Of a stretch of DNA of 64,000 nt, positions 15,015 through 23,916 are shown piece after piece. The stretch lies in IMG/VR virus record IMGVR_UViG_3300024339_000005, one strand, 5' to 3'. Origin of the DNA: a virus. The position numbers and the translations under genes were made by a program. Numbering within the stretch: position 1 is the first letter of the stretch; each line of letters begins with the position of its first letter. The notes under the pieces are model-generated. The model was not told where the DNA came from. It was given only the letters and a program-made list of their open reading frames with translations, and did not search any database.

Positions 15015-15548
15015 TTATACCTTTTTTGCTGTGAATCCTTTGCTTTTTCCATATTTTATGAGATTTCCCTGGTCTACACCACGCGCCCCTGACCACTCCC
15101 TTAGGTTGACAATGACGTAGGGTTCTCCACCAGGTTCTGATACCAAGAATTGTTTAGAATTTCCTGCGCCAATAGCGTCTTTTCTCTCTTGGCTGTGTTT
15201 CTTGCCTCTATGTTTATCAGCAATCTTGTCCCGGGTTTCTTGTGATACTGGTTTGCCCCGGTGCTTTTCCCTGTTATTTTCAAGTTGCTCCTCGGTCCAG
15301 ATTCCGGTCTTCCCCTTATTCCAGGGTATGCTACCAGTCATGCGCTCTTTATGTGCGGCACGGTGCGCTTCTGCATTTGTGATTTGACCAGATAAACATT
15401 TCCAAGCAATACGGTCATATTCGTTACCATATTCTTCATAGAGTTTTCTATGCGCTTCGGCATGTTCTGGTATGGTTAGGAGAATGAGATTCGGTGGATC
15501 ATCGGTGCCACCTGAGTGTCTCGGTATTATATGATGTTTGTGTTTCAT
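15015..15548 (-). CDS. HNH homing endonuclease with NUMOD3 repeats
   Basis: HKHHIIPRHSGGTDDPPNL...EHAEAH; PWNKGK, HRGKKHSQE. Confidence 0.88.
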   Translation of the reverse strand: MKHKHHIIPRHSGGTDDPPNLILLTIPEHAEAHRKLYEEYGNEYDRIAWKCLSGQITNAEAHRAAHKERMTGSIPWNKGKTGIWTEEQLENNREKHRGKPVSQETRDKIADKHRGKKHSQERKDAIGAGNSKQFLVSEPGGEPYVIVNLREWSGARGVDQGNLIKYGKSKGFTAKKV

Positions 15549-15667: not shown

Positions 15668-17029
15668 TCACATGAGATTGTCGACCGCAATAATTCTGTA
15701 ATAAGAGTTCTTATTAGCGAACGATACAACACCATCGGCTGCCGAAGTCGCATATGGGTTAGCAACAAGGCCATACCTGGTCTTGAATCCGATTTTGGGC
15801 TGGAACGTATTCTCGCCAATAGCGCGAACCATTTGTAGTGGCACGTATGGGCAATAGAACATACCGGCATCAAAAGGACTTGAACCTTTATAACCAACAG
15901 TAGCATACTGGATACCAGATGTGGCTGCAAAGTAAGGGTCGATATAAACCTTGAACTGACCGTTCAGGTTACCAACGAAGGTGTTGCCTGTGTCGTCAGA
16001 GGTGATGCTGTTGTTCAAAGCAGGTGATGTATCAAGAACACCAGCCATGTTCAATGCAGAGGCAACGTCACTTGAACAAACAAGCATGTTACCTTTACCA
16101 CGACGAGTAGCCTTGGCAATTGCGTTGGCTTCGCGCTCCAATTGGAACATCAAGCCCTTGAACTTTTCAACAGACCAACGTCCGTTTGCGTCTTGGTCAA
16201 GATCGAATGTACCAGCAGAAGCGACGTTTTCTTGGGCGCCGATTGTAGCAGAGATATTGATCTTACGAACCATTTCGCGGTTGATTTCAGCCAGGATTTC
16301 TGTTGACAGAATGTTAGACAATTCTGTTTCAGCATCCAAACCATGAACGGCTTTCAAGTCTTGAGCCAATTCCATGGTGTATTCAGCTTTAAGCGCACGA
16401 CTAAGGGCTGTCACGGTGATTTTCTCGATTGAGAAAGCCATTTCAGGGAAGTCATGTGTTGTTGCTTCGCCAAGTCTTTCAGCAAGTGCTGTTGACATAG
16501 CGGTAGCGGCTGTGTAAGTGTCACCGTCGACAGGTGTCGCAACAGGTGAAGAACCAAGTTGGTTGTTAGCAACAAGAGCCATCGCAGCATTACCAGCAGC
16601 AGCGGCTGAGAATGTTGTGTTTGCTTCGTTATGAAGTGCTTCAGTACCAGTTTGGTTGGTGTAGCGTGAACGCATAGCAAAGATAAGTCCGGTTGGACCA
16701 GTCATAGGCTGAACGCCCATCATATCAAAAGCCATTAGGTTCGGTGCAGCACGGCGAAGTAGTGAAATCAACACTGGATCGAAAATGTCGATAGCGCCGT
16801 CGCCAGCAGTAGAAGAAGAAGCACCCATGTTGTTCGTTGGTGCAGCTTCCAATAGAGATTGTGGTCCACGGTAGCCACCATTGCCAGCGGCATTGGTACG
16901 GGCATCCGTTTCTTGGTTCTCTAGCAGAGTTGCGATAACCGAGCGTTTGTGAGCATCCTCGATCTTAGGTAGATCGGGGTGTTCTATTACTGGCTGCCAC
17001 TTCTCTTGTAGTTCGTGATTGAGCAACAT
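15668..17029 (-). CDS. gp23: major capsid protein
   Basis: LLENQE, FDPVLISL, GVQPMTGPTGLIFAMRSRY, YCPYVPLQM, QPKIGFKTRYG. Confidence 0.99.
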   Translation of the reverse strand: MLLNHELQEKWQPVIEHPDLPKIEDAHKRSVIATLLENQETDARTNAAGNGGYRGPQSLLEAAPTNNMGASSSTAGDGAIDIFDPVLISLLRRAAPNLMAFDMMGVQPMTGPTGLIFAMRSRYTNQTGTEALHNEANTTFSAAAAGNAAMALVANNQLGSSPVATPVDGDTYTAATAMSTALAERLGEATTHDFPEMAFSIEKITVTALSRALKAEYTMELAQDLKAVHGLDAETELSNILSTEILAEINREMVRKINISATIGAQENVASAGTFDLDQDANGRWSVEKFKGLMFQLEREANAIAKATRRGKGNMLVCSSDVASALNMAGVLDTSPALNNSITSDDTGNTFVGNLNGQFKVYIDPYFAATSGIQYATVGYKGSSPFDAGMFYCPYVPLQMVRAIGENTFQPKIGFKTRYGLVANPYATSAADGVVSFANKNSYYRIIAVDNLM

Positions 17030-17059: not shown

Positions 17060-17067
17060 TATTTATA
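17060..17067 (-). promoter_or_regulatory. T4-type late promoter (gp23)
   Basis: TATAAATA upstream of AAGGAGA and ATG. Confidence 0.85.
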
Positions 17068-17070
17068 AAT

Positions 17071-18210
17071 TTAGCGTTTTGTAGTGCGAGAAATGGCGTC
17101 CATATACGGGCTCATCGCTGGGTCCGCTTTTCGGGCTTCTGATTCGCTACCGTCGTCAATAGCTTCGTCAGATACTTCTTCACTTAGAACGACAACTTTG
17201 CCATCTGTTGGGAAATAACTTTCCTTCAGAGTAACAACTTTGTCACGATAATCATCTTCACTATCGAAATCAACGCCTTCGGCGAGTGCTTTCAATTTTT
17301 CTGCCTGAGTGTCAACGAGACCTTCAGTCACTTCCGCAACAATTTCAGCCATTGTCAGAGTGTCTTTTTCCTGACGAAGGTCGATAGAAGCATTCAATGC
17401 TTCATCTAATTGCGCTTCTAGATCTTGGTTACGAAGGGCCAATTCCTCAACAACGTCAACCTTTTCTTCGGGTACGTCAATGAAATGGTCTTCCAACAAG
17501 CCGTGTAGGCCAGTAATGAAAGATTCGGCTAGTTCGTTACGAATACCAGAATCGATAGCTAGTTCGTTTTCTGATACCCATTCTTCGCAAACATATTCAA
17601 GATATGTATCAACTTTTTGAGCCATTTCCGCCACAAGAGCATCACTGGTTTCAGTAAGTTCTGCTTCAGCCGCTTCTGCAATTTGCTGGGCAACTTCGTT
17701 AGCCTTAGCAACAACAGCGGCTTCAAAGATAGTAGTTGCAGTGGCTTTGAATTCCTCGGAAAGGTCTTCATCACCGAACATTGCAGCAACGTCGGCTGCA
17801 AGGTCAACATCTTCTTTGGTTACTTTTTTGAAAGGGTTTTCTTTTTTCTCGGACTTTTTATCGTCGTCGTCTTCATCGTCGTCATCATCTTCATCGTCGG
17901 CTTCAACGAGAGAACCCATGACGCCATCGAACATTGATTCAAGTTCGAGGGTGGATTTGTCTTTCATGCTGTCAATAACAGCATTAATCATATCCGCTTT
18001 AGTCAATTCTTCTTCGACTTCTTCGTTTTTCAACGCTTCTTTAGCAGAAATGGTTTCTTGGCTTTGGGCGCCTTTTTTCTTCTTGCCGTCAGCTTTTGGA
18101 TCTTCAGCGTTCTTACTTTTGTCAGAATCGCTAATTTCGGAGCCCTTCACAACAGGCGTGCCAGAATGGTCAGCCTTGAATTCGTCCAATTGTTCATCTT
18201 TGATAGACAT
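17071..18210 (-). CDS. gp22: prohead core scaffold protein
   Basis: LSEEFKATATTIFEAAV, VDTYLEYVCEEW, LKESYF; acidic. Confidence 0.95.
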   Translation of the reverse strand: MSIKDEQLDEFKADHSGTPVVKGSEISDSDKSKNAEDPKADGKKKKGAQSQETISAKEALKNEEVEEELTKADMINAVIDSMKDKSTLELESMFDGVMGSLVEADDEDDDDDEDDDDKKSEKKENPFKKVTKEDVDLAADVAAMFGDEDLSEEFKATATTIFEAAVVAKANEVAQQIAEAAEAELTETSDALVAEMAQKVDTYLEYVCEEWVSENELAIDSGIRNELAESFITGLHGLLEDHFIDVPEEKVDVVEELALRNQDLEAQLDEALNASIDLRQEKDTLTMAEIVAEVTEGLVDTQAEKLKALAEGVDFDSEDDYRDKVVTLKESYFPTDGKVVVLSEEVSDEAIDDGSESEARKADPAMSPYMDAISRTTKR

Positions 18211-18254: not shown

Positions 18255-18905
18255 TTAGAGTCTTGAAAGAAAATCCTGAAAAACAGCAAGTTTGCTTTCC
18301 TCAAGTTCTCTCCTAGACGCCTTTTGAATCACTTGTTGGTGACGGGCAATATCAACTTCTTTGATGATACCGTTTGCCCATACCCATTCTCTACCTTCCA
18401 TAATACCGTCAACGTAAGCATCGGGTGCTGAAGGGTCTGCCACAATGTCAGCCGGAGTAGCCAGATGAAAATCACCTTGTACTTCGTTGACGCCCTGGAC
18501 TTGTTTTAGTGAACCCATGCCACGGCTGGATACACCAAGATTGCCACCGTCTTTGATAAGACCCTTGACAATATCACCCATTGGGGTGCTTGAAATTTTT
18601 GCTTTACCAATGAAGTTATTACCTTCTTTGACAAGCGACGTAATGCGGTGTGACGCACGGTCGAGGTTGATGGTCGGTCCTGTAGGATGACCAAGTTCGC
18701 CCCATGCTCTACCCTTATCGACATTTTCAGTCACATAACGGGCAACTTCACGTTCCAGGATCGCGCTTGGATATTTACGACCATTACGGTTAGCGACTTC
18801 AGACTGCATAAACACTCCATTGATATATAGAGTTTTCTCACCAGTCGCTTCGTTCAATTCCTCAAACGGTTTAACGTCTTCAGACATTTCTGTAATTAGT
18901 TTCAT
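18255..18905 (-). CDS. gp21: prohead core protease
   Basis: MKLITE start, NRNGRKY, GELGHP, GVSSRGMGS, DIVADPSAPDA. Confidence 0.97.
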   Translation of the reverse strand: MKLITEMSEDVKPFEELNEATGEKTLYINGVFMQSEVANRNGRKYPSAILEREVARYVTENVDKGRAWGELGHPTGPTINLDRASHRITSLVKEGNNFIGKAKISSTPMGDIVKGLIKDGGNLGVSSRGMGSLKQVQGVNEVQGDFHLATPADIVADPSAPDAYVDGIMEGREWVWANGIIKEVDIARHQQVIQKASRRELEESKLAVFQDFLSRL

Positions 18906-18915
18906 TGTTTTTCCT

Positions 18916-19695
18916 TTATGCGGGACCGCTAGTTGGGAATTCTTCTGTTGCGATTGTGTAGTTGCCTGTATAACGAGCCACACCTTTTGTTATTCTCAAT
19001 TCATCCATCCAACCAGAAAGTGGGCCATCTGGACCTACTATTGAATCCCAGTTATCACCAATGCGTGTTGTGTGGTTACCGTTTGTGTAGTTATTACTAT
19101 CAGCAAACGAACCTACTTCAACACCATCTACAAACAGATATGATGTACCACCTGTTCTAGTCCAAGCAATAGCATACCATACACCAGTTGTTAAACCAGC
19201 GCCTGTTGAACCATATTCTGTACCGTTATAGAAGTGAATTTCATTTCTGTATGCTTCCGCAGCCGCCGGACCAAAAATATCAATTGCCCATGGTGCTGCG
19301 CTGTTAGTTGATCTAAAGTCTAGCAGGTTGATGCCTGCTGTACCAAAGGCATTCAGTTTAACTCTCATTTCAACAGTTAAATCACCAGTTCCAAATGTCA
19401 TTTCAGTTCCAGCATTTATAGAAACATAATGATCGTGAGTGCCTGGTAAGATAAGGGACGCTGTACCGAATACTTTTTCGGCTGTATCAAGTTCTGCGGT
19501 GCCAACGGCAGCTAATGTTTTTAAGCCTGTTTCATCAACAAACGTGGTTGAAGCGTCTGTACCATTGAATTTAGAATATAGTACAACATTATCCCAATAA
19601 GGATCAGTAGCAGGCGCACCTCCACCACCAGAGAACCTGGAAGCAGGATTCACGATAGCCATATTAGTAAGAGATATGCCAGCACCCAATTTCAT
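18916..19695 (-). CDS. putative head spike fibre with LamG/concanavalin-A-like domain
   Basis: N-terminal MKLGAGISLT, Gly linker, DPYWDNVVL, LamG signature WYAIAWTR...LFVDG...GWMDELRITKGVARY. Confidence 0.75.
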   Translation of the reverse strand: MKLGAGISLTNMAIVNPASRFSGGGGAPATDPYWDNVVLYSKFNGTDASTTFVDETGLKTLAAVGTAELDTAEKVFGTASLILPGTHDHYVSINAGTEMTFGTGDLTVEMRVKLNAFGTAGINLLDFRSTNSAAPWAIDIFGPAAAEAYRNEIHFYNGTEYGSTGAGLTTGVWYAIAWTRTGGTSYLFVDGVEVGSFADSNNYTNGNHTTRIGDNWDSIVGPDGPLSGWMDELRITKGVARYTGNYTIATEEFPTSGPA

Positions 19696-19698
19696 GGT

Positions 19699-19977
19699 TT
19701 AGTACATTCCGATTACGCTGTTGGCTGTTGAGTTAGTCCACACTTTACGGACGCGCAAAGGCAGAACAGTACCAGCTGGAATAGCGGTAAATGTAACGGT
19801 GTTTCCTGAAGCCATACCTGCAAGTTCAACAACAAGAGTACCAGTCTCACCAACATAAACCGAACGGGTCGTATGTGTGGTGTTTGCTGTGTTACTTGAT
19901 GTTATAGCATAGGAATGCGCCGCAGGACTATCTAGGTCCGTATAGAAATTATTGAATTTATCGGTTTGATTAGGCAT
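19699..19977 (-). CDS. head spike base protein, RcGTA Rcc01079-like family
   Basis: D.F....L.SPA...IT.S...TRSVYVGETGTL.V...VTF..IPAG.VLPLRVRKV...TA pattern, recognised by eye. Confidence 0.75.
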   Translation of the reverse strand: MPNQTDKFNNFYTDLDSPAAHSYAITSSNTANTTHTTRSVYVGETGTLVVELAGMASGNTVTFTAIPAGTVLPLRVRKVWTNSTANSVIGMY

Positions 19978-19980
19978 GAT

Positions 19981-21363
19981 TTACCCCACTGCTTTCAGAA
20001 TTGCGTCTTCGTTATGTCCATCTTTTTGTAGGGTTTTCATAATGGCTTCATCACTTTTACCCTTGCCCCTCAAGCGTTTGACTTCTCTTTGTGCAAATTC
20101 TAAGGACGATTTTTTGAGAACCTTCATCATTCCGGCGCTCTGCTTATCAGCGTTTTTTTTAGAAAGGGCTTCGTCAATAAAACTACCGAAAGATTCGAGA
20201 CCCTCTTTACGAGTTTCTTTGTTCTTGGCTTTCAATGCTTTCTTGGCTGCGTCTTCTGCATCATCTACAGATTTTTCAACACCGTCAGCCGCTTTATGAA
20301 CATCACGGATGCCTCTCTTGGCACCTTTAGCAGCCAGAACGGCTTTACCAGCGTCGGAAACTTCATCAAGTTCAACTTCTTCTTTAACACCAGAAGTGAT
20401 AATATCAAACGCTTTTTTAGAAGCGGCCTCTTGGCTCATACCTTTTTTAACAAATTCCTTTGTCATTTCAATATGGCGCTTGATGCTGTTTTCAATCGCT
20501 TTACTACCACCGGCTCTTGGGCGATTAGCTTTGATTTCATCAAGTTCAACTTCCTCTTTGATGCTTGCAACAGCCTTCCAAAACTTAGGGTTACCTGTCA
20601 GTTTAGAAATGACTTGTACCACACGCTTTTTGATTTGGTCTGCGTTATCAGGCGCAAAGGAACCGAACATGAAATCGTCTTCAAATGGTCTGGAACCACG
20701 ACTAAAGATATGGATGATCGAATTCCAGTAATTTGTTTCTTCTTTGTCTTTGATATGCTTCTTGGCAAACGCCTTCATTTGTTTACCGATTTCCATATAA
20801 GCCTTGGCTTGGTCAGATTTGTTGAGCATCTTACCTTGAGCAGCGGCGAAATAAGGAATCGCTTTTAGTTGTAGTGCGCCTTCAGCCAATTCAGTTTCTT
20901 CGTTTTCAATCAGATTATAATAGTCGATACCTTTAGCAGCCTTCGCGTCATAACCACTAATGAACTTTTTGACCTTTGCGGGATCATCTTTGATAGTAAC
21001 ACCATCTGGTCCTTTGGACCGACCCATGCGATAGGTAAATTTAGCATTTAGACCTTTGGCTTTTGCTGCCTTCAACATTTCTTCTGGGTCAAAATCAAAG
21101 TTTTCTTGATCTGCATTGAATTCATATTTCTTAGCTTCACCCAATTCAGTTTCTTCAGCATGAACAGAAGACCGAGCGCCTGTTGCTTTGCCTTTGAAAA
21201 CCTCGTCACCCGCAGTTGGGTGCTTAGTCATATCAGCCAGCTTCTTGCCCTTTTTGAGCGAATTAGCGGCTTTGACTTCTGGATTTTCAGGCTCCATTTC
21301 CTGTGGGTTTGCCTCGGGTACCTCTTGAAGGTCTCGGCGCATTTGTCTAAATGATTTACTCAT
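19981..21363 (-). CDS. modular prohead core/internal protein at the gp68 position
   Basis: Charged protein between gp67 and gp21; four EE(T/V)EL(G/A/D)E linkers. Confidence 0.7.
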   Translation of the reverse strand: MSKSFRQMRRDLQEVPEANPQEMEPENPEVKAANSLKKGKKLADMTKHPTAGDEVFKGKATGARSSVHAEETELGEAKKYEFNADQENFDFDPEEMLKAAKAKGLNAKFTYRMGRSKGPDGVTIKDDPAKVKKFISGYDAKAAKGIDYYNLIENEETELAEGALQLKAIPYFAAAQGKMLNKSDQAKAYMEIGKQMKAFAKKHIKDKEETNYWNSIIHIFSRGSRPFEDDFMFGSFAPDNADQIKKRVVQVISKLTGNPKFWKAVASIKEEVELDEIKANRPRAGGSKAIENSIKRHIEMTKEFVKKGMSQEAASKKAFDIITSGVKEEVELDEVSDAGKAVLAAKGAKRGIRDVHKAADGVEKSVDDAEDAAKKALKAKNKETRKEGLESFGSFIDEALSKKNADKQSAGMMKVLKKSSLEFAQREVKRLRGKGKSDEAIMKTLQKDGHNEDAILKAVG

Positions 21364-21553: not shown

Positions 21554-21561
21554 TATTTATA
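21554..21561 (-). promoter_or_regulatory. T4-type late promoter (gp67)
   Basis: TATAAATA. Confidence 0.8.
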
Positions 21562-22040: not shown

Positions 22041-23657
22041 TCACTTCTTTGGCTCTGGCTCCGGTGCGCCAGGTAACTGACGGTCTTCCTCGTCTGGAAG
22101 TTGCTCTATAGGTTCTTCGCGTGTAGCCGCGTCTGGTCGTCCAGAGAAAGCACCGAAGTTTGTGTCACCAGTTTCTTCTGGATCTACTCCTTCCGCTTCA
22201 TCCTCTTTCATAGCCTTAGCCAATTCTTCGATTTCTTCATCAGTCTGGCGAAGAATATTCTTTTTGACCCACTCAAGAGAATAGTAACGACCAACATAGG
22301 CGTCAACATCATTCAAGATGGTCATGCGTTCGCGCAAGATTTCCTGGTTCTTTGATTCAGCAAAGTGGTTATCTTCACGGAAGTCATAAAAGATATCCTC
22401 TTTGATGATATTCCATGTTGCTTTGTCTGTGATACCCTTGAGAATTAGTTGGGTTTCAAGAAAATCGTCAAACATTTCGGCAAACTGCATACGCAATCTG
22501 TTGATAAACTTTGAGAATTTCAATTCGTCACGGGTAATTTCACTTGCACGACCAAGATTAAATGCGCCGTCTGCTTCCATACGAGAGATAGGTACGTTCA
22601 AGGCCTTGTAAAATTTGTTTTTGAAGAATTCAACATCCTCAATTTGACCCAAGTTCTCACCACCGGGTAGTGTAGAAATCTCTGTTCCTTTGCCACCTTC
22701 ACGACGAGGCAACCAGAAATCTTCCATCATAGTCTGGAATTTACGGTCGTCTTTGATTTCACCAGTCGAGGCGTCATAGACCAGTTTGTTCTTATGCTTG
22801 ACCATCATATCTTTGAGATATTGTTCCGCCTTCATCTTCGGCAGGTTACCAACGTCAATGTAGAAAATGCGACGTTCGGGTGCGCGAGAGATACGGTAAA
22901 TGACCAATGAGTCTTCCATCCAACGCATCTGGTTCCAAATCTTTAGAGCCTTATTCAAATGCGAAAGGATGATGGTGTTTCGTTCGTTGATAATACCGGA
23001 GTGAACATAGGTAATCGAATCTTTAGCGATACGAATACCCTCGTTCATGTTACTGGCGATGCCACGTTCGTTGTATAGGTAGAATTCTTTATATGACGGT
23101 GCAATAGAAACAACAGGTCTGTTAGTGTCCTTCGGTGCAATCTGCTTACGAACCTTCTTGATTTTACGAGGGTCGATATAGCGCAATTCCAGAATGCCCT
23201 GCCTTGGCTTCTTTACGTCAATCATCTTGTGGTAATACAAACGACCGTCTACGTACCAGCGTTTGAAAATATCATAAGCCTTGTTGTTGAAATCCATCAA
23301 CTTGAGAATCTGTTCAAATTCTTCGGTGATTTTCTTTTTGATAGCCTCTGGCTGTTCCAGTTTGTCTAACTTGATTTCAACAGGAGACTTGTAGTTCTCC
23401 ATTATGATCGCTTCGTTTACGATATCATCAATGGCTCTTTCACCCTCAGGTGATAAAGCAAGTTCTCTGTATTTTGTGATAAGTTGCGCTTCGTTTTTTG
23501 AAGTCGCGTCCATATCCAAATATGTACCGAAGACGCCATTTTCCGCAACCGTCATAGCCGCGTCGTGGTTAGCCGGAGCGGTGAACGATTGAATGTTCTC
23601 TCGCTTTTTGTCTTCTTTTTCTACACGGCCAATTTGATAGCCGAACAACTGAATCAT
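22041..23657 (-). CDS. gp20: portal vertex protein
   Basis: WYVDGRLYYH, LRYIDPRKI, IYRISRAPERRIFYIDVGNLPK, EDFWLPRREGGKGTE. Confidence 0.99.
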   Translation of the reverse strand: MIQLFGYQIGRVEKEDKKRENIQSFTAPANHDAAMTVAENGVFGTYLDMDATSKNEAQLITKYRELALSPEGERAIDDIVNEAIIMENYKSPVEIKLDKLEQPEAIKKKITEEFEQILKLMDFNNKAYDIFKRWYVDGRLYYHKMIDVKKPRQGILELRYIDPRKIKKVRKQIAPKDTNRPVVSIAPSYKEFYLYNERGIASNMNEGIRIAKDSITYVHSGIINERNTIILSHLNKALKIWNQMRWMEDSLVIYRISRAPERRIFYIDVGNLPKMKAEQYLKDMMVKHKNKLVYDASTGEIKDDRKFQTMMEDFWLPRREGGKGTEISTLPGGENLGQIEDVEFFKNKFYKALNVPISRMEADGAFNLGRASEITRDELKFSKFINRLRMQFAEMFDDFLETQLILKGITDKATWNIIKEDIFYDFREDNHFAESKNQEILRERMTILNDVDAYVGRYYSLEWVKKNILRQTDEEIEELAKAMKEDEAEGVDPEETGDTNFGAFSGRPDAATREEPIEQLPDEEDRQLPGAPEPEPKK

Positions 23658-23679: not shown

Positions 23680-23916
23680 CTACTGACTATTTAGTAGTTT
23701 TCTCTGGGCGTGCCATGCTTTCATAGATTCACTCCGTTTCCGCCGGGTTTCTTCTGAATGAATATAGCCTTTGAACATAGATCCGTTTTTTCTAGCCAGG
23801 TCTCTATGAAAATCGGTAGATTTTGATATACTCAAATTTTTACGGTGTTCACTAGAATATTTTCTACCCCTCATAAGCAATAGTGCGGGTGGGTGTTCAA
23901 GCACCGCGACCCGCAT
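23680..23916 (-). pseudogene. homing endonuclease remnant (NUMOD3 repeats only)
   Basis: GRKYSSEHRKNLS and GYIHSEETRRKRSESMK with no catalytic domain. Confidence 0.65.

Follow-up and report, generated by a model that had tools for sequence, protein, structure and literature searches.

A candidate capsid-vertex spike of the RcGTA kind encoded in the head operon of a T4-like virus

The IMG/VR virus record IMGVR_UViG_3300024339_000005 supplied the DNA analysed here, a stretch of 64,000 nucleotides (nt) referred to as the window (64 kb), and the statements below on missing genes (gp24, tRNA) refer to this one window. On its minus strand, within a T4-type head operon, a 92-amino-acid (aa) gene (19699..19977) and a 259-aa gene (18916..19695) are located between a 460-aa gene and the gene for gp21, the prohead protease, an arrangement which had been described in an initial annotation and which our analysis confirmed. 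The question raised by this locus is what such a pair of proteins does in a T4-like phage, and whether, as that annotation had proposed, they form a head spike like that of the gene transfer agent (GTA) RcGTA.

The head spike of RcGTA has been well described (PMC7296036, PMC5026251, PMC10218006). Its base protein, Rcc01079, forms a pentamer on the capsid pentamers, into the pockets of which residues 2–10 of the fibre (IALGLGLGL) are inserted as a star; these are the only residues of the fibre, Rcc01080, that are resolved in the structure, and Glu12 of Rcc01079 has been reported as a cation bridge to the capsid protein (PMC7296036). The fibre binds the capsule (PMC10218006). Phage homologues of this spike have been noted only for the Rhodobacter phages RcapNL and RcapMu/RcWaterboi and for Rhodobacterales prophages.

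On the evidence given below, we consider, with a probability of about 0.7, that the products of the 92-aa and 259-aa genes are the base and the fibre of a two-part spike on the capsid vertices, like that of RcGTA, with predicted base pentamers on gp23 vertices, predicted binding of the fibre to the base and to glycans, and a putative role in adsorption. By analogy, the phage probably uses its head plus its tail to stick to host surface sugars. What appears to be new, judging from the sequences, is the occurrence of a base and a star-anchored fibre in the gp23 (T4-type) capsid lineage, the base/fibre kind itself being known from RcGTA; in the literature searched, coverage of which was incomplete, no spike of this kind was reported on T4-type capsids.

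The 92-aa protein as a spike base

The 92-aa protein matched NF048002 (‘spike base protein, RCAP_Rcc01079 family’) over the whole profile (1–85 of 85) with an E value of 1e-21 and 77 bits (cut-off 28), and in a phmmer search of the PDB its residues 6–89 matched residues 2–81 of ‘Head spike base Rcc01079’ (6TB9/6TBA/6TSU/6TUI) at E 8.4e-7. PHROG 12296 was also matched (9.5e-17), and an exhaustive phmmer search returned 1483 cluster representatives at E <= 1e-3, nearly all of them 80–100 aa long. An alignment of 89 sequences, built with 88 of these 1483 representatives, was used as input for AlphaFold2; the resulting all-beta model (pLDDT 88.7) was taken instead of the single-sequence model, which had a pLDDT of 38.9 and was not used. 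The best PDB match of the model was Rcc01079 in the RcGTA capsid (6tb9), with a Foldseek E value of 5e-5 and TM scores of 0.73/0.79, and with Z 11.1 and an rmsd of 3.0 over 78 residues by VIA; the second was chain h of the capsid of the podophage Carin-1 (Z 10.1), and the next, unrelated match had a Z of only 4.2. The six-stranded jellyroll of Rcc01079 was reproduced in the model. Thus, the resemblance to Rcc01079 that had originally been seen by eye was borne out by both the profile and the structure comparison, the two checks proposed for it at that time.

The 92-aa protein follows the consensus of the family at D6, F8, L15, D16, P18, R38, Y41, G43, G46, F63, G69, P73, R75 and A85, and it has all residues that are near-invariant in the family. 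The latter include an N-terminal D6-x-F8 arm, D6 being kept in 79 and F8 in 74 of 89 family members. D16 aligns with Glu12 of Rcc01079 in a column occupied by D or E in 52 of the 89. Judged from these sequence and model comparisons, the 92-aa protein is a genuine spike base of the Rcc01079 family. It was also noticed that a 2075-aa protein (P0005) has 11 tandem stretches matching the 92-aa base domain (E 3e-20).

The position of the base gene allows another reading. In the T4 map, gp67 and gp68 are encoded between the portal gene and gp21, the interval occupied here by the base gene with a Lys/Glu-rich, core-like gene just 5′ to it, and the 92-aa protein could be a prohead core or scaffold component like gp67/gp68, removed at maturation, with the LamG gene as an unrelated insertion. 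However, in both sequence and fold the protein is strongly homologous to an external protein of the vertex, it is all-beta, unlike the helical, charged core proteins, and in other phages the base gene is found after gp23 or far from the head genes, so that we regard a core function as extremely improbable.

Similarly, both proteins might be tail components, since PHROG 12296 and several GenBank records bear the label ‘tail fiber protein’ and since the pair is situated at the end of a tail-gene block in RcapMu, RcWaterboi, RcapNL and Verrucomicrobia phage P8625. However, the RcapNL homologue already bore the name ‘tail fiber’, given to it by similarity to other phage sequences, at the time its head location was reported. 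Moreover, only two of the solved structures match, 6TB9 and 8CJZ (Carin-1), both of them parts of a capsid, and the gene is within or beside the head module in five gp23-type lineages. A tail location of both proteins is therefore given a very small chance.

Base homologues were found in phages of Flavobacterium, Puniceicoccales, Edwardsiella, Ralstonia, Variovorax, Rhizobium, Paracoccus, Rhodobacter, Caulobacter and Ruegeria, and a structural homologue is present in the capsid of Carin-1, the host of which is Cobetia according to the literature. The Rcc01079 family is a large one, present in many phages, of which RcGTA is merely the single characterised member. Regarding the description of the spike as GTA-type, membership of the family was upheld, but the label misleads as to direction, given the 1483 representatives and the many phages concerned. 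The hint at an alphaproteobacterial host was not supported: phages with a family member also infect Bacteroidota, Verrucomicrobiota and Beta- and Gammaproteobacteria, among them the first five hosts listed above.

The candidate fibre and its anchor peptide

The 259-aa gene is located immediately 3′ of the base gene, as expected for a fibre gene of the Rcc01080 type, with a 3-nt gap (TAA, ACC, ATG). Its layout agreed with that described earlier: a putative star anchor, MKLGAGISLT, encoded by codons 1–10 (19666..19695, minus strand), a GGGG run at residues 23–26, which may serve as a tether, and a LamG or concanavalin A-like domain at residues 88–237 (18985..19434, minus strand), which matched Laminin_G_3 (PF13385) with E 1.7e-14 and 54.7 bits (gathering cut-off 27.6) and would be the glycan-binding tip. 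The PHROG matches of the protein fell on LamG segments of large phage structural proteins.

MKLGAGISLT resembles residues 2–10 of the RcGTA fibre in having alternating hydrophobic or small-aliphatic residues, M1, L3, A5, I7 and L9, separated by K, G, G and S. On a crude 9-point score, the motif reached 8, and within the window the fibre is the only real gene start that bears it. In a model of four (not five) base copies with fibre residues 1–40, run without controls, the ipSAE was 0.01, a value given no weight either for or against binding. It was also observed that the base and fibre genes share a reading frame, split by TAA-ACC (19695–19701), so that base and fibre would be fused if the stop were read through; as the gaps of -4, -1, +1, +7 and +11 at other loci are out of frame, the in-frame arrangement is probably due to chance.

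The N-termini of the genes immediately downstream of base homologues were then read in cultured phages, the homologues being retrieved with two family queries. The downstream genes start with 1) MYIGLGISLQ in the Flavobacterium myovirus immuto (546 aa), 2) MGLGLGIGLGL in RcapNL (144 aa), 3) MIGLGLNIW in Edwardsiella phage ZHS (141 aa), 4) MIGLGLDLSL in P8625 (584 aa, with LamG), 5) MLAGLSLGMGI in Myoviridae ctsTn925 (258 aa, with weak LamG), and 6) MFISIANAIGV in the Flavobacterium podovirus elemo (259 aa). Among 367 open reading frames (ORFs), a score of at least 8 of 9 was reached by base-downstream genes and one tail sheath gene, and by nothing else. With a family member close to the consensus as query, a sample of 83 IMG/VR loci was collected. 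In it, 14 of the 46 distinct downstream N-termini fitted a strict regular expression for the anchor and three more were near misses, compared with a fit at 0.63% of the open start codons of the sample as a whole; since several candidate starts were allowed per locus, a fair background would be a few percent, still far under 30%. One of the fitting downstream genes of this sample (L105, 775 aa) starts with MKLGINLSITGG, which is very near MKLGAGISLT. The recurrence of the leader downstream of base homologues in unrelated phages, together with its fit to the star-peptide rule (PMC7296036), lends indirect support to the fibre role first proposed for the 259-aa protein.

The bodies behind the anchor are unrelated to each other, and the recognisable ones are carbohydrate-directed (LamG, PA14/GLEYA and GDSL esterase). 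LamG is found behind the anchor in P8625, ctsTn925, L073 and L059; therefore, of the proposal that the fibre carries a swapped lectin tip, the lectin cargo stood, but it is not a one-off. A 780-aa protein 3′ of another base homologue (L068:4231-6573) starts with MFIGLGPLISGI and contains a GDSL esterase domain, which suggests, from its sequence, that head-borne polysaccharide deacetylases may exist besides lectins. Unrelated bodies behind a shared anchor are the look expected of a modular plug-and-socket system, as far as sequences can tell. With even odds, the Rcc01079-family pentamer is a general vertex socket on tailed-phage capsids and the N-terminal peptide of about 10 residues, (hydrophobic-small) x 5, a portable plug for domains that bind or cut carbohydrates (the cargo listed being LamG, PA14/GLEYA, GDSL esterase and Ig-like repeats), in which case a tail LamG protein would have been moved to the head by 11 codons. 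A portable anchor peptide would be a modest generalisation.

A homologue search placed the fibre body in a large family of LamG proteins of ~230–250 aa. Many members of this family, here called tail-type, have an N-terminus of the form M-(L/I)-(L/I)-N-P-x-R-F, followed by a Gly run and DPYW-x-NV, and members were found directly after megatron-like or host-specificity tail genes (L023:4148-6732; L025:939-6696). The conserved N-terminus of this family may be a second kind of docking peptide, for the tail. Residues 12–259 of the window fibre (MAIVNPASRFSGGGG...) can be aligned over their full length with P0274, a LamG protein of ~243 aa, from its Met; because they amount to a whole protein of the tail-type LamG family, the anchor consists of 11 added residues. 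From the sequences, the simplest history looks like one in which a tail-type LamG receptor-binding gene gained 11 N-terminal anchor codons.

Several points weigh against the spike proposed here. The virion location of both proteins is deduced from sequence comparison. RcGTA builds its capsid from a plain HK97-type protein; gp23 carries an insertion domain in addition, which makes docking of the base on gp23 pentamers a putative step. The fibre body showed no homology detectable by BLASTP (E 0.49) to RcapMu gp58, named in the literature as an rcc01080 homologue; by analogy, the 259-aa protein may work as Rcc01080 does without belonging to its sequence family. At the loci of the two closest base homologues (L005 and L006), no fibre gene adjoins the base gene, which indicates that a base can exist without an adjacent fibre. 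Finally, an ATG is present at codon 12 of the fibre gene, and the anchor would be lost if M12 were the real start.

In this last case, the base would still be on the vertices, but the LamG protein would be a ~248-aa accessory lectin of the tail or baseplate that is sited in the head operon. The end-to-end alignment with P0274, the shared start of many family members, the tail genes adjoining them in L023 and L025, the bases without a fibre in L005 and L006, and the lack of a strong ribosome-binding site at M1 would all fit a start at M12. However, neither M1 nor M12 is preceded by a good Shine-Dalgarno sequence, and M1 is 3 nt past the preceding stop, like the starts at other operon junctions, whereas M12 is 36 nt past it. 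In addition, the 11 extra in-frame codons spell the base-adjacent motif, present at 0.63% of open starts, and it was judged unlikely that an untranslated in-frame stretch would spell so rare a motif; the NPYRF docking motif of the tail-type family is also degraded here to NPASRF. A start at M12 is consequently considered unlikely, and the anchored fibre starting at M1 is preferred.

Candidate pairs in other phages were also examined. The LamG homologue closest to the window fibre (P0156, 62% identity; L019:7673-8804, also in L020–L022) starts with MFGLGVPGPGV and directly follows a 108-aa beta-rich protein, P0275, in a phage-like region that encodes ribosomal protein S21, HSP20, ClpS and an RF-1 domain. 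P0275 was rejected as a base homologue, as no relation was detectable with NCBIfam, PHROGs or hhalign, and with P0156 it may represent an analogous socket of a different family. A pair of 88-aa and 314-aa genes in L025 was rejected as base and fibre for having no NF048002 match and no anchor N-terminus. A seemingly full-length match to the fibre in Ralstonia phage YO088_1 was rejected, being an internal LamG repeat of a 576-aa protein, with no candidate base among the upstream ORFs.

The head operon and related loci

The order of genes on the minus strand is gp20, a 65-aa ORF, the 460-aa gene, the base, the fibre, gp21, gp22, gp23 and an HNH endonuclease gene. Profile matches sharing strand and order confirmed a T4-type head operon: the portal protein gp20 (22041..23657; Portal_T4, 3.2e-174), the prohead protease gp21 (18255..18905; Peptidase_S77, 2e-41), the scaffold gp22 (17071..18210; T4_CASP, 3.3e-65) and the major capsid protein gp23 (15668..17029; Gp23, 1e-138), the last of which, as vertex pentamers, is the presumed docking surface of the spike. 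The Lys/Glu-rich 460-aa protein encoded 5′ of the base gene (19981..21363, minus strand) was assigned to no Pfam or NCBIfam family and is, from its context, a candidate prohead core or internal protein; a 437-aa gene is found at the equivalent position in L006. The stop of the 460-aa gene is separated from the ATG of the base gene by 3 nt, and that of the fibre gene from the gp21 ATG (18905) by 10 nt, with AAGGA inside. The longest gp21 ORF starts with a GTG at 18983 and overlaps the 3′ end of the LamG gene (18906–18983), but translation most probably begins at the ATG at 18905, which has AAGGA ahead of it and yields the conserved gp21 N-terminus.

As noted at the outset of this work, no gp24 follows gp23: the gene directly 3′ of gp23 is that for the HNH endonuclease (15015–15548), and a tblastn search of the 64-kb window with gp23 found gp23 itself only, i.e. 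no second gene of the Gp23 family. At 23680–23916, between the tail tube and portal genes, a remnant of 78 aa was observed that looks like part of a homing endonuclease (PHROG 314, 1.5e-4). The window contained no tRNA genes.

A T4-type late-promoter motif, TATAAATA, is located just ahead of the 65-aa ORF (21554..21561, minus strand) and heads a transcription unit consisting of this ORF, the 460-aa gene, base, fibre and gp21. This motif occurs 19 times in the window compared with 2.4 expected (~8-fold), mostly just 5′ of late or structural genes (for example at 17060, 18244, 21554, 21980 and 27307). The motif and the position in the operon together indicate that base and fibre are late genes, co-transcribed with the prohead genes.

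With regard to relatives of the window, one marine metagenome contig (L017) is 100% identical across the base gene; apart from it, the scan of metagenome contigs gave one short, distant match only, and a word-based homologue search returned only a near-identical fragment. Scans of the viral contigs with the window protein or with two alignments yielded no relative. Among cultured phages, gp23 is at most ~62% identical to any; its closest counterparts come from Pelagibacter phage Mosig and Methylophilales phage Melnitz (62% for both) and from Stenotrophomonas phage DLP_6, and the cultured-phage collection held no nucleotide-level relative of the window.

Base genes were found in several arrangements in gp23-type phages. 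The two nearest homologues, with 62% and 58% identity (L005 and L006), are in T4-like head operons directly before gp21. In IMG/VR loci L032-35, the order is gp21-gp22-gp23-base-fibre, gp23 is 56% identical to that of the window, and the fibre starts with MTISMGMGSGLGV and carries a PA14/GLEYA domain, while in immuto the base and fibre also come directly after gp23. Caulobacter phage Cr30 has a base only, between terminase and sheath genes, and in G002, a complete 170-kb T4-like IMG/VR genome, the base is isolated, ~55 kb from gp23. The G002 base (L027:7989-8264) is a lone plus-strand gene amid minus-strand non-structural genes and has no adjoining fibre. Each of the three complete base-carrying genomes compared (immuto, Cr30 and G002) has exactly one Gp23-family gene, and so has the partial contig G001. 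Among ~2600 cultured-phage records with a gp23 homologue, a base homologue was found, with the two queries, in immuto and Cr30 only. The base cassette is thus mobile among gp23-type phages and, in this small sample, occurs only in phages without gp24. This correlation is a weak one because, to our knowledge, most non-enterobacterial T4-like phages have no gp24 anyway.

Assembly of the proposed spike can be pictured as follows. Both genes would be expressed late from the T4-type late promoter, alongside the prohead genes, and the 92-aa jellyroll would assemble into rings of five copies, one at each of the 11 vertices not taken up by the portal. Since the window has no gp24, these vertices have to consist of gp23 pentamers, on which the ring would be held by the conserved N-terminal D-x-F arm and the acidic D16. 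One copy of the 259-aa protein, apparently a tail-type LamG receptor-binding protein with an 11-residue anchor tag, would then plug its first ten residues into the ring, with M1, L3, A5, I7 and L9 each entering the hydrophobic pocket of one base subunit to form a five-point star, and the Gly-rich tether would leave the LamG domain free to bind host surface polysaccharide. Such binding may let the head make an initial, reversible contact before the tail comes into play.

If this is true, marine T4-like phages would own a second, head-borne adsorption device, the lectin tip of which could be swapped while the tail fibres stay the same; this would matter for host range and for the way in which such phages come upon capsulated cells in dilute seawater. 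If the plug and socket also prove true, head-first adsorption would be widespread, modular and engineerable, and would extend to T4-type capsids. The short conserved anchor suggests a simple rule for spotting head fibres in metagenomes, and the peptide may offer a natural route to protein display on phage vertices. Related genes are available in cultured carriers, namely immuto (base and anchored fibre) and Cr30 (base only).

Comparison with known systems

Few capsids have been studied as well as T4-type heads, on the surface of which Hoc and Soc are the known proteins. Like the fibre proposed here, T4 Hoc is an adhesin-like fibre displayed on a T4-type capsid, but it is situated at hexamer centres, is attached by a C-terminal domain and carries Ig-like domains, being unrelated in sequence, site and attachment. 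T4 gp24, missing from the window, is the vertex protein whose place the spike would cap. The base is similar to chain h of the capsid of Carin-1, a Cobetia marina podophage (PDB 8CJZ; TM 0.69/0.73), a solved capsid chain, which shows that actual phages, and not GTAs alone, use this fold on their heads; the identity is only 24%, however, and Carin-1 is a podovirus with a T7-like head.

To RcGTA Rcc01079 (GhsA) and Rcc01080 (GhsB) (PDB 6TB9/6TBA), the likeness extends to the base, with ~35% identity over ~80 residues and the same jellyroll fold, to a fibre gene immediately downstream, to a fibre with five alternating hydrophobic N-terminal positions, a flexible linker and a beta-rich sugar-binding body, and to a presumed stoichiometry of 5 base : 1 fibre. 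The differences are that the carrier in the window is a lytic-type T4-like myovirus with a gp23 capsid, whereas RcGTA has an HK97-type head; that the window genes are in the head operon under a T4 late promoter, whereas those of RcGTA are at a separate chromosomal locus beside capsule genes; and that the fibre body is a LamG of the tail-type family, with no detectable homology to RcapMu gp58.

The Flavobacterium phage vB_FspM_immuto (Immutovirus), which is cultured, encodes a comparable pair, gp205/gp206, annotated as ‘tail fiber protein’ (the base) and ‘hypothetical protein’ (the fibre). In this phage, the pair is located after gp23 instead of before gp21 as in the window, and the 546-aa fibre consists of about six repeats of ~85 residues with no LamG. 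Nevertheless, the immuto pair is in a gp23-type head operon with a single Gp23-family gene and no gp24, its base is 38% identical to that of the window, and the next gene starts with MYIGLGISLQ, close to the MKLGAGISLT of the candidate fibre.

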